IMG/VR virus record: IMGVR_UViG_3300023053_000001
Coordinates: 32,001 to 96,000 of that record
From: a virus
Lineage: Duplodnaviria; Caudoviricetes
Length of the DNA: 64,000 nucleotides
Strand: one strand, 5' to 3'
Part shown: positions 14,900 through 15,693 of the stretch, in pieces
Layout: every line of letters starts with the position of its first letter
Position numbering within the stretch: the first letter of the stretch is position 1
The notes under the pieces: model-generated
Seen by the model: only the letters and a program-made list of their open reading frames with translations
Database searches by the model: none
Told to the model about the DNA's origin: nothing
Position numbers and translations under genes: made by a program

Positions 14900-15659
14900 A
14901 AAAAATAACTGCCGTGGTCGATAGTGTAGGAGCAGAGCTTGCCAGCGTGCTCCCAACTGGAACATAGCCGAAAAGAAAGCCATCTAACTCTCCACGAAAG
15001 TAGAGGTTGCTGACCAAGATCCTCGCCGACCTCGAGCCGGCGAAACGCTTGGCGGAACGCTTGAACCGTTGAAGGAGTGGTTAGGGGAACCGACATCCGT
15101 CGACCAGGGCGCCTTTCCAGTTTCGAGGCCGGTCCATCTGCACATTAAAGGGGAAGTGCGACCCTGGAGGTGTGTAGGTGGACAATCTCGATTTCATCGC
15201 AAAAGACATTGATGGCCAGATGCTCGGGTGGCATTGAGCAGTGCACTTACTTCATTCGTGCATTTTTCGGGGGTTCGAGTCCCTCTTGGCCAATCCAGTG
15301 TACTTTGCGATGGAATCCATCTAGCCGCCTACTGACAGAATAAGCGGTCGTCCAGGTAGTGCCTTGCCAGCGATGCAACGCTGGCCCGTACTGAACTGTC
15401 TGCTGTGGTGCCTTTCGAACCGATCTGGGGAGATAGGTTGCACATCACAGAAGTTGTCGCTCAACCGAATGTCATCCATGCGCCGTCCACTTAGTAACGC
15501 CTGAAGCCGACCTACGGGTCTGGTCGATGCCGTGAAGCCTGGCGGGGTGTGAGGTGACGGTAGTTAAGAGTCTTCAGCCTTCAGGGTTTACCGTTAGCCG
15601 CGGCCGCGAGCTTACTGTGAATTCTGCTGGGTGCCGACTTTGTCTCACCAACTTCTGAC
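14900..15659 (+). ncRNA. Candidate large structured ncRNA enclosing a tRNA-like domain (5' limit uncertain, 14900-15100)
   Basis: No credible ORF; many helices including 15195-15203/15304-15312, 15366-15372/15379-15385 and 15556-15562/15589-15595; strong terminator after. Confidence 0.55.
15213..15297 (+). tRNA. Atypical tRNA-like cloverleaf with enlarged anticodon arm; identity not assignable
   Basis: Acceptor tggccag/ttggcca, D stem gctc/gagc, anticodon stem gtgcac/gtgcat with 11-nt loop ttacttcattc, 5-nt variable region, T arm ggggg-ttcgagt-ccctc. Confidence 0.65.
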
Positions 15660-15693
15660 TCCTAGGCCCTCTCCGGGGGCCTAGGACTTTTTT
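15660..15693 (+). terminator. Intrinsic terminator
   Basis: tcctaggccc...gggcctagga-c-tttttt. Confidence 0.9.

Follow-up and report, generated by a model that had tools for sequence, protein, structure and literature searches.

We identified a candidate large non-coding RNA gene in a phiKZ-like jumbo phage (IMG/VR record IMGVR_UViG_3300023053_000001). The RNA is predicted to be a folded molecule of roughly 790 nt, and it belongs to a family that is absent from Rfam 15 and lies beside the same small protein gene in every locus found. The gene occupies a gene-free kilobase (14808-15791) of the window, the 64,000-nt stretch of the 268-kb genome that we analyzed (positions 32,001 to 96,000 of the record). 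A first-pass annotation had proposed a structured non-coding RNA of about 600-800 nt at 14900-15693, with no credible ORF, extensive pairing potential, a tRNA-like fold at the tip of a longer helix and a strong terminator, and we find that this observation is correct. Its interpretation, a GOLLD-like or new large RNA class in a nucleus-forming-type jumbo phage, is supported only in part: a new class is supported, membership of the GOLLD family is not, and the tRNA-like domain, which it took to be enclosed in the RNA, is an insertion seen only in this phage rather than a core feature.

The interval is non-coding and folds better than chance

We first asked whether the interval could encode protein. 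No ORF of 30 aa or more in 14808-15791 has coding-like codon usage, and all score like out-of-frame shadow ORFs. All six frames carry mixed TAA/TAG/TGA stops, so no recoding opens a frame, and five independent gene-calling records leave the interval empty. Translation of the minus-strand ORF 14863-15096 (77 aa) had been named beforehand as a finding that would overturn the RNA reading. This ORF is open in this phage and in the close relatives L024 and L026 (relatives' loci are labelled L024 to L029 here), but it has two internal stops and no start codon in the relative L027. Its substitutions are spread evenly over codon positions (12/11/11 and 7/6/6), with no third-position bias, and it matches no PHROG or Pfam family. 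We consider it very unlikely that the interval encodes one or more small proteins.

For 14907-15695 on the + strand, the MFE is -319 kcal/mol with a z-score of -4.8, and for 14906-15657 z is -3.6 on the + strand and -0.5 on the - strand. By segment, z on the + strand is -3.8 for 15111-15189 (0.06 on the - strand), -5.9 for 15190-15317 and -2.7 for 15448-15657 (+0.4 on the - strand). However, against all 821-nt windows of the genome, the + strand lies only in the lowest 5% after GC correction, and single-sequence folding alone is therefore modest evidence. At the 3' end, 15660-15686 forms a 12-bp stem with 8 G-C pairs followed by a T-run on the + strand only, giving a predicted intrinsic terminator at 15660-15693.

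The region is conserved beside a small protein gene

A divergent gene on the - strand (14565-14807) encodes an 80-aa basic protein that is 42-47% identical to LUCX_193 of Xanthomonas phage LucasX and to WJJ55004.1 of Xanthomonas phage RTH11. A degenerate-pattern search for this protein in IMG/VR found nothing, whereas a profile search of 5.8 billion proteins found 14 relatives, and homologues occur in LucasX, RTH11 and about ten metagenomic jumbo-phage contigs. In every locus, the gene is followed by an uncalled stretch of 0.5-0.9 kb that shares an A/T-rich promoter-like box ending in AC, a conserved 5' motif, a hairpin with GCAGCCUUCAG and a terminator at the equivalent place. The interval is conserved, syntenic and covarying in at least four clades of related jumbo phages, and it is retained next to the same gene in clades whose proteins are only 30-50% identical. 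One locus, L028, at first appeared to be a member without the RNA, but its "181-aa gene" lies opposite a clade-B-like 3' domain and is probably a spurious call. The window also carries phiKZ-like internal head proteins, and the relative LucasX is treated as a chimallivirus in the literature.

Other routes to homologues gave no result. A blastn search of the region against 50,697 phage records found no match, and an exact 24-nt scan of IMG/VR with the T arm plus acceptor found nothing. Relatives of the downstream MazG-like protein are only 32-35% identical and have compact upstream regions, yielding no homologues of the RNA, whereas contigs carrying the identical MazG-like protein are 100% identical in the region and give no variation. 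A self-search of the genome found no paralogue of the region, and tblastn of relatives' neighbouring ORFs against the region found no pseudogene remnants.

The promoter-like box TAAAAAATAAC lies at 14899-14909 and is invariant in all five clade-A sequences, including the 68%-identical L027. Equivalent boxes of 7-8 A/T followed by AC lie 71-102 nt from the small gene's start in every clade. In this genome, copies of the box lie in intergenic DNA and are mostly oriented towards a downstream gene, and the clade-B version has 4 sites each in LucasX and RTH11 and 0 in the reversed control. No sigma-70-type promoter was found in 14400-16100. The box is followed by the 5' motif GAU(A/G)(G/A)UGU(A/G)G, present here as GATAGTGTAGG at 14921-14931. 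The 5' end is more likely at about 14910-14920, just downstream of the box, than at 14900 as first annotated.

Downstream of the terminator, 15705-15765 holds predicted promoters of the next gene (MazG-like, 15792-17300) and is not part of the RNA. The motif TTTgAGAcATATAACAC recurs at about 8 intergenic sites roughly 50 nt upstream of genes and also occurs in another phage, G001, and a TATG-containing box follows at about 15745-15765. We considered whether the RNA is mainly a transcriptional or processing device for the downstream operon, such as a long attenuator or leader whose terminator is sometimes read through, or a precursor cut at the tRNA-like site. The RNA has the same orientation as the downstream gene and ends about 100 nt before it, and acceptor and T-arm minihelices are RNase P and RNase Z substrates. 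However, the downstream gene differs between clades (MazG-like here and in L027, DUF7448 in clade B, others in LucasX) and has its own promoter motifs after the terminator, and the tRNA-like site is absent in all other members, making this reading unlikely.

Compensatory changes support the predicted fold

To test whether the fold is conserved, we derived RNAalifold consensus structures from alignments of the relatives. In alignment A5, the 5' multi-helix domain (14910-15111) comprises a closing helix (about 14910-14927 with 15093-15111), a hairpin (14929-14953) and an inner arm (14983-15085) that includes the hairpin 15023-15043. Together with the next hairpin, this domain has 78 pairs, with 89.7% of cells paired against 37-44% in slid controls and 20 pairs with double changes against 2-7 in controls, which 0 of 500 shuffles reach. 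The next hairpin (15132-15183) has 15 bp and is rich in G.U pairs, with a mean pair probability of 0.98 and 4 G.U pairs. All changes in L024 and L026 keep its pairing, and L027 shows a U-A to C-G change.

In alignment A7, which covers the 3' half, 138 pairs have 96.8% of cells paired against 33-43% in slid controls, and 12 pairs have double changes against 1-2 in controls. This consensus includes three central hairpins (15324-15348, 15357-15393 and 15401-15447), of which the second contains hairpin 15366-15385 with A-U to U.G and G-C to C-G changes. The 3' domain (15448-15657) is closed by 15448-15455 with 15650-15657 and holds a variable arm (15471-15558) and the signature hairpin. In clade B (alignment A6), 161 pairs were predicted, 32 of them with double changes. 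Of the helices listed in the first-pass annotation, ggagca/tgctcc, gccagcg/cgctggc (which covaries), acattg/cagtgt and catcgcaaa/tttgcgatg are in the conserved consensus fold, whereas ccaggg/ccctgg, gacggta/taccgtt and gtgag/ctcac are not; the first of these is broken in L027, and the other two remain possible alternative pairings.

The family signature (15566-15638) consists of UCAGCCUUCAG (15574-15584) plus its hairpin. The 11-mer occurs with at most 2 mismatches in every full-length member of all clades, and GCAGCCUUCAG is present in every full-length member. In the cross-clade alignment A10, 93% of cells are paired against 35-41% in controls, and 11 of 21 pairs have double changes against 2-4 in controls, although two rows of A10 are antisense hits. 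We built a covariance model of this hairpin (R2), which gives one hit per genome at the expected site. In the 268-kb genome its only hit is 15566-15638, at 51.6 bits and E 2e-10, a sequence that was part of the training set. R2 also hits untrained clade-C members at the expected place, at E 2e-4 and 7e-4, and gives 0 hits in 664 kb of unrelated viral DNA that contains the bare sequence pattern. A search of IMG/VR with the pattern GCAGCCTTCAG-N35-65-GGAAGT matched at least 103 stretches, and R2 confirmed none of the 80 listed as loci. Outside the 3' hairpin, homology across clades rests on synteny and short motifs: a clade-B nhmmer profile does not hit clade A, and only weak bridges exist through L028 and L029, at E 0.003-0.025. 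The covariation rests on 3-13 rows and about four independent clades, and the structures were predicted from, or fitted to, the same alignments, which inflates the paired percentages.

These data also bear on whether the region is a long non-functional spacer, or only promoter and terminator DNA, with a decayed tRNA pseudogene and incidental structure. The sub-threshold tRNA-like element, the modest genome-wide MFE rank and the presence of other gaps of about 1 kb in a crude gene map of the genome are compatible with this view. Against it stand the retention of the interval, the conserved motifs and compensatory changes in three separate alignments, and the specificity of R2. Moreover, the relatives keep the RNA but lack the tRNA-like piece, so this piece is not why the region is kept. 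We regard a spacer as improbable.

The plus strand is favoured

G.U cells number 48 on the + strand against 14 in the mirrored structure for A5, and 53 against 5 for A7, and RNAalifold gives -134 on the + strand against -100 on the - strand for A7. Together with the single-sequence z-scores and the terminator T-run, this favours the + strand. For the 5' domain, however, RNAalifold energy is equal on both strands, and the minus strand of 14906-15110 folds slightly better in a single sequence (z -3.3 against -2.4), so the strand of this domain rests on G.U counts and on context. An alternative is that the conserved structure, or at least 14910-15190, is a long 5' leader of the small protein gene read on the minus strand, acting as a cis-regulatory or autoregulatory element. 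The small gene is the only constant neighbour and starts about 100 nt from the domain. Nevertheless, the G.U counts, the orientation of the A/T-rich box (like promoter copies that face downstream genes on the + strand), the terminator, the clear + strand preference of the 3' half and the + strand tRNA-like insert argue against this alternative, which we hold to be unlikely.

The tRNA-like element is a lineage-specific insertion

The tRNA-like cloverleaf (15213-15293) sits on a 27-bp stalk. Its acceptor stem is 15213-15219 with 15286-15292, and below this the stalk hairpin (15190-15211 with 15296-15317) contributes 6 bp plus 14 bp. Like canonical phage tRNA genes, the element has a 7-bp acceptor stem, a 4-bp D stem with GG in the loop, a 5-nt variable loop and a T arm (15269-15285) with the GTTCGAGTC loop; its acceptor/T-arm stack carries a T-loop of GTTCRANYC type (TTCGAGT). 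The T arm is 16 of 17 identical to that of the phage's own tRNA-Leu(CAA). It also has a 6-bp anticodon stem. In contrast to these genes, its anticodon loop (UUACUUCAUUC) has 11 nt and offers no U33/purine-37 frame, and it has A8 and G14 instead of U8/A14 and no encoded CCA. The Rfam tRNA model (RF00005) gives 15.6 bits against a cut-off of 29, with only model positions 10-63 aligned. ARAGORN does not call the element, and with introns allowed and the threshold lowered it yields only implausible models, each requiring an 80-582-nt intron. The element is not a decoding tRNA. ARAGORN's tmRNA search found none in the window or the genome, and the cloverleaf is contiguous and internal rather than formed by two ends with a tag reading frame.

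Comparison with relatives indicates that the cloverleaf is a 74-nt insertion between two copies of the palindrome TGGCCA, which now pair as its acceptor stem. It is absent from relatives that are 80-94% identical and from every other member, L024, L025 and L026 included. In L024 and L026 the stalk is conserved but closes a 5-nt or a 10-nt loop, L026 keeps one TGGCCA in the loop, and L027 has a plain long hairpin at this position. A covariance model of the stalk plus cloverleaf (R1) found nothing in G001 or LucasX. A blastn search of the tRNA-like piece against phages gave only generic T-arm matches at E about 0.9, so no parent tRNA was identified, and the complement of the 11-nt loop has no convincing target in the phage genome.

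The small protein has a predicted alpha-beta-beta-beta-alpha topology

The AF2 model of the 80-aa protein has alpha-beta-beta-beta-alpha(-alpha) topology (H13-23, E24-28, E36-40, E46-50 and H53-62) with pLDDT 74.6, the order of elements found in dsRNA-binding domains. The top Foldseek hit is the DGCR8 dsRBD at E 0.33, and VIA-align gives dsRBDs only Z 2.5-3.0, with a best overall Z of 4.2. Pfam and PDB sequence searches were empty, and Foldseek, VIA-align and the ESM Atlas gave no significant relative.

A proposed RNA gene module

Taken together, we are fairly confident that the interval holds the gene for a + strand structured non-coding RNA running from about 14910-14920 to the terminator at 15693. 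The family would comprise RNAs of 0.5-0.8 kb in a lineage of phiKZ-like jumbo phages that includes LucasX, RTH11 and metagenomic relatives, in which several peripheral hairpins vary in length between members. The analysis establishes the arrangement of the module (small gene, A/T-rich box, 5' domain, central hairpins, 3' domain with the GCAGCCUUCAG hairpin, terminator) and the insertion of the tRNA-like element, whereas expression, the promoter activity of the box (probably a phage promoter), the transcript ends, stability and any function are inferred from sequence alone. Our best guess is that the RNA would be a stable, highly folded molecule acting in trans as a scaffold, most plausibly in a ribonucleoprotein with the co-conserved small protein, an idea without direct support. 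The alpha-beta3-alpha topology of this protein resembles a dsRNA-binding domain only weakly, and the protein has no significant structural or family match. In this view the tRNA-like module would be an optional peripheral add-on, possibly a handle for host tRNA-recognising enzymes such as RNase P or RNase Z, or a tethered tRNA-shaped cargo as proposed for GOLLD.

A more speculative and less likely possibility is a new class of large ornate RNA specific to nucleus-forming (chimallivirus-type) jumbo phages, which would build a defined RNP with its dedicated small protein or form an RNA-only multimer. Its role would lie in the special RNA logistics of these phages, such as RNA export from the phage nucleus, ribosome capture or decoying host RNA-targeting defences, and the insert at the stalk tip would mark an outward-facing docking site able to carry tRNA-like cargo, in parallel to GOLLD.

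To our knowledge, only a handful of bacterial or phage structured non-coding RNA classes longer than about 400 nt are known, and most lack a known function. The family described here is also absent from the annotation of the two published phage genomes that carry it, and the co-conserved small protein gene provides a built-in clue. Because LucasX and RTH11 are culturable, expression, knock-down, pull-down and cryo-EM are directly feasible. The tRNA-like insertion is a natural experiment that shows which hairpin is peripheral, and it offers an independent parallel to the tRNAs embedded in GOLLD, which may help explain why large phage RNAs associate with tRNA shapes.

Comparison with known large RNAs

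We compared the RNA with described systems. Like GOLLD, it is phage-encoded, predicted to be highly structured, 0.5-0.8 kb long and of unknown function, with conserved domains joined by variable regions, and some GOLLD RNAs carry tRNAs in their variable linker, which holds as an analogy only. A cmscan of 14700-15900 against all 4227 Rfam 15 models, GOLLD among them, returned at E <= 10 only the weak tRNA hit and a chance sRNA hit; the window gave 0 hits at gathering thresholds, and LucasX and eight relatives' loci gave nothing. The RNA is thus not a detectable member of the GOLLD, ROOL or OLE families, and we read it as a new family of the same general kind. GOLLD lies beside tRNA islands in phages or prophages, whereas the window has no tRNA and the only tRNA gene of the genome, at 161455, is about 114 kb away. 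A dedicated protein neighbour, such as the small protein gene here, is not known to be a feature of GOLLD or ROOL, and the embedded element is not a real tRNA and occurs in only one member. A highly diverged GOLLD or ROOL RNA, missed because the covariance models are too narrow, would fit the size, the phage origin, the lack of a known protein-coding role and the tRNA-shaped element in a variable region, but we consider this unlikely.

ROOL is likewise a large structured RNA of phages and prophages, often discussed together with GOLLD (described as a homo-oligomeric 14-mer nanocage) as a cage-forming RNA, but its hosts and phage type differ, and no pseudoknot-rich core has been shown for the RNA described here. 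The bacterial Y-RNA-like YrlA with Ro/Rsr also combines a long stem with a tRNA-like module and is encoded next to its protein partner. Here, no Ro/Rsr homologue is present, no Rfam YrlA or Y RNA hit was found, the RNA is several times larger, and the tRNA-like part hangs from an extension of the acceptor stem and is not conserved in the family. Finally, in MALAT1-mascRNA and other tRNA-like processing modules, a tRNA-shaped element is embedded in a long non-coding transcript, with an intact acceptor and T-arm stack that RNase P and RNase Z could recognise. MALAT1 is a eukaryotic system, and in the phage RNA the predicted leader and trailer are base-paired, forming the 20-bp stalk, which may hinder RNase P.

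Gene content and predicted folding of the interval

We examined the interval in its genomic setting to determine whether it could encode a protein. Bases 32001-96000 of the 268,458-bp viral record, which has direct terminal repeats, encode phiKZ-type internal head proteins (PF12699), RecJ and ribonucleotide reductase, with a GC content of about 58%. The interval lies between two divergent genes, an 80-aa ORF on the minus strand (14565-14807) and a gene for a 502-aa MazG-like protein on the plus strand (15792-17300; phrog_2144). A second small minus-strand gene of about 71-77 aa (14281-14514) directly follows the 80-aa gene. 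It is also present in clade-A relatives, at 70-71 aa in the metagenomic contigs L024-L027, and may belong to the same operon. None of the 20 ORFs of 30 aa or more inside 14808-15791 has coding-like codon usage, and they score like out-of-frame shadows. Every frame carries a mixture of all three stop codons, so no alternative code opens a frame, and gene callers left the interval empty in five independent assemblies of the same phage. The first-pass annotation had named translation of the minus-strand ORF 14863-15096 as a result that would count against a non-coding RNA. In relative L027, this ORF has two stops and no start codon, and its substitutions show no third-position bias. A crude codon-usage gene map leaves other intervals of about 1 kb without a convincing gene (window 5218-6163 and 56770-57684; genome 179534-180760, 19295-20518 and 242460-243476), which may hold atypical genes or further non-coding RNAs.

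The plus strand folds much better than shuffled sequences, with z -4.8 for 14907-15695 and z -3.6 for 14906-15657, against -0.5 for the minus strand. The strongest pieces are 15111-15189 (z -3.8) and the stalk with its tRNA-like cloverleaf at 15190-15317 (z -5.9). However, when compared with all 821-nt windows of the genome, the region is only in the lowest 5% after GC correction, and single-sequence folding is therefore suggestive rather than decisive. The terminator at 15660-15693 is real and specific to the plus strand. The tRNA-like fold is as first described, but ARAGORN rejects it and the Rfam tRNA model gives 15.6 bits against a cut-off of 29. Taken together, the observation of a gene-free, structured interval holds.

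We next asked whether the interval belongs to a catalogued RNA family. A search with Rfam 15 at gathering thresholds returned nothing in the whole window, and at E <= 10 it returned only the weak tRNA match and a chance sRNA match on the region. By that test, it is not a member of GOLLD, ROOL, OLE or any other catalogued large RNA family.

Relatives share a divergent small protein gene

Searching for relatives through the downstream MazG-like protein was uninformative, since its relatives are only 32-35% identical and have compact upstream regions, while contigs encoding the identical protein are 100% identical in the gap. The relatives of the 502-aa protein (LucasX LUCX_201 and those in phage G001 and in L009 and L010) have about 250-280 aa and match only residues 1-280. 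The C-terminal half appears to be an extension found only in this phage and, in a shorter form, in the 425-aa protein of L027.

The other neighbor proved informative. The annotation of Xanthomonas phage LucasX shows an 807-bp unannotated gap next to a 79-aa minus-strand gene, and Xanthomonas phage RTH11 has the same arrangement with an 848-bp gap. Both small proteins are homologous to the 80-aa ORF, with 42-47% identity and E 1e-16 to 1e-21 in pairwise comparison. Using a profile of these proteins, we found 14 relatives among 5.8 billion proteins, and their contigs show the same module each time, with the small gene followed by an uncalled 0.65-0.99 kb interval on the other strand. This also holds in phage G001. 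In the metagenomic contigs L028 (2371-2916, +) and L029 (924-1469, +), a 181-aa gene is called opposite the RNA gene. In L028, both a clade-B RNA profile and R2, a covariance model of the signature hairpin described below, hit the opposite strand, and RNA profiles likewise hit the other strand in L029, so the call is probably spurious. The downstream gene differs between clades, being MazG-like here and in L027, DUF7448 in clade B, and others in LucasX. The constant partner of the interval is therefore the small protein gene.

We modeled the small protein from 14 homologs. The AlphaFold model has a pLDDT of 74.6 overall and about 87 in the core, and its predicted topology is alpha-beta-beta-beta-alpha-alpha, followed by a basic tail, PTRRR. 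That is the topology of a dsRNA-binding domain. The top Foldseek hit is the DGCR8 dsRBD, but only at E 0.33, and the best VIA-align Z is 4.2, with dsRBDs at 2.5-3.0. Searches of Pfam, PDB sequences and the ESM Atlas returned nothing. An RNA-binding role is a reasonable guess from the gene linkage and not a finding.

Landmarks shared by the family

In all clades, a box of 7-8 A/T residues ending in AC lies 71-102 nt from the start codon of the small gene, and about 10-12 nt later comes the motif GAU(A/G)(G/A)UGU(A/G)G. In this genome, the box AAAAAAT-N-AC recurs at several intergenic sites, mostly oriented towards a downstream gene. In LucasX and RTH11, the clade-B version occurs four times each, against zero for the reversed control. 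Jumbo phages with their own RNA polymerases are reported to have short, AT-rich, phage-specific promoter motifs (PMC7598289). We therefore infer that the box is the promoter of the RNA. Every member ends in a strong terminator, and every full-length member contains GCAGCCUUCAG with at most two mismatches, 90-250 nt before the terminator. The window has UCAGCCUUCAG at 15574-15584. From box to terminator, the predicted RNA measures 493 nt in G001, 609-672 nt in clade B, 714 nt in L024, 785 nt in L027 and 789 nt here.

Two other intergenic elements recur in this genome. A strongly conserved motif, (cgATTg)-N-TTTcAGAtCTATAACAC, occurs at about 8 intergenic sites, including 15705-15721, 10898-10914 and 61692-61708 in the window and genome positions 16032, 211643, 227085 and 268172 outside it. 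All copies are on the plus strand, most lie about 50 nt upstream of a gene, and a near-identical copy follows a terminator in the distantly related phage G001. It is probably the early (virion RNA polymerase) promoter of this phage group. The commonest intergenic words are CCCCTCCC/GGGAGGGG terminator stems followed by CTTATGCCG (for example at window 7866 and at genome 256997 and 152355). This contains TATG, the phiKZ late-promoter core, suggesting a repeated unit of terminator plus late promoter. The same CTTATGC follows the terminators of the RNA gene in LucasX, RTH11 and G001.

Conserved structure and its strand

To determine whether the predicted fold is conserved, we tested three alignments against controls in which each 3' partner is slid by 1-3 columns. 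For the 5' domain (14905-15192), alignment A5, with 5 sequences from two subclades 68% identical, gives 78 predicted pairs, with 89.7% of cells paired against 37-44% in slid controls and 20 pairs with changes on both sides against 2-7. None of 500 shuffles reaches the observed A5 values. For the 3' half (15190-15700), alignment A7, with 3 sequences 80-90% identical, gives 138 predicted pairs, with 96.8% of cells paired against 33-43% and 12 pairs with changes on both sides against 1-2. In A7, the hairpin gccagcg/cgctggc, which had been listed in the first-pass annotation, changes A-U to U.G and G-C to C-G. For the signature hairpin across all clades, alignment A10, with 13 rows, gives 21 predicted pairs, with 93% of cells paired against 35-41% and 11 pairs with changes on both sides against 2-4. 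Clade B alone (alignment A6) gives 161 predicted pairs, 32 of them with double changes. These values rest on few sequences, two rows of A10 are antisense hits, the structures were derived from, or fitted to, the same alignments, and the counts take no account of phylogeny as a test such as R-scape would.

The covariance model of the signature hairpin, R2, behaves specifically. It finds exactly one site in the 268-kb genome, at the expected place, and one top-scoring site at the expected place in each of LucasX and RTH11, although in RTH11 there are also an antisense hit over the same hairpin (E 0.009) and one weak distant hit (E 0.03). It also finds clade-C members that were not used in training, at the expected place and strand, with E 2e-4 and 7e-4, and it finds nothing in 664 kb of unrelated viral DNA that contains the bare sequence pattern.

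We then asked which strand carries the structure. G.U pairs are far more frequent on the plus strand than in the mirrored structure, with 48 against 14 in A5 and 53 against 5 in A7. The 3' half has a much better consensus energy on the plus strand (-134 against -100), and the terminator and the tRNA-like insert are plus-strand features. However, the 5' domain alone is energetically ambiguous, and for this reason a minus-strand leader of the small gene remains a possible but unlikely alternative.

The tRNA-like element is an accessory insertion

Relatives L024, L025 and L026 are 88-94% identical upstream and 80-90% identical downstream, yet they lack about 75 nt exactly at the cloverleaf. The stalk itself is conserved, closing a 10-nt loop in L026, AUGGCCAGUC, that contains one copy of the palindrome UGGCCA, and a 5-nt loop in L024. 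In the window, two UGGCCA copies flank a 74-nt insert and pair with each other to form the acceptor stem. The more distant L027 has a plain long hairpin at this position, and no other member has a tRNA or tRNA-like hit. The simplest history is a gain in this lineage by microhomology at UGGCCA, although a loss by recombination between the repeats cannot be excluded. Other members carry their own lineage-specific insertions in peripheral hairpins. RTH11 (L022:1990-2040) has about 35-50 extra nt, and clade C (L002:3040-3150 and L036) has about 75 extra nt inside the signature hairpin relative to clades A and B (151-152-nt hits against 73-94 nt). The family tolerates insertions at several tips, not only at the stalk that carries the tRNA-like piece here.

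The element is not a decoding tRNA. Its T arm is canonical and 16 of 17 identical to the T arm of the phage's only tRNA, Leu-CAA, which has an encoded CCA and sits at the start of a 655-bp interval with no convincing gene (genome 161395-162049, outside the window). However, the anticodon loop has 11 nt, positions 8 and 14 are A and G, and there is no CCA. From established knowledge of these enzymes, we infer that the intact acceptor and T-arm stack could still be recognized by RNase P, RNase Z or the CCA-adding enzyme.

Interpretation and comparison with known large RNAs

These results together show that the finding is more than a lone oddity. The interval is the gene of a structured RNA of about 0.8 kb, from a family absent from Rfam 15 and unannotated in the published genomes that carry it. 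The family occurs in phiKZ-like jumbo phages, including two cultured Xanthomonas phages, one of which is treated as a chimallivirus in the literature. The analysis shows the absence of a credible protein-coding gene, the constant linkage to the small protein gene, the shared landmarks and conserved pairing, and the accessory nature of the tRNA-like insert, whereas expression of the RNA, its promoter, RNA binding by the small protein, enzyme recognition of the insert and the mode of action are inferred from sequence and predicted structure alone. Given that the RNA is real, we tentatively favor a trans-acting scaffold or RNP formed with the small protein as the most likely mechanism, with an RNA-only assembly and a processing or regulatory role as the alternatives.

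The interpretation in the first-pass annotation, a GOLLD-like or new large ncRNA class that encloses a tRNA-like domain, is therefore supported in part. A new large ncRNA class is supported, while the tRNA-like domain is an accessory insertion and not the heart of the RNA. On the Rfam 15 search, the comparison with GOLLD does not hold as family membership, but it holds as an analogy, in that both are large, phage-borne RNAs of unknown function, and some GOLLD RNAs, like the RNA here, carry a tRNA-shaped module in a variable region.
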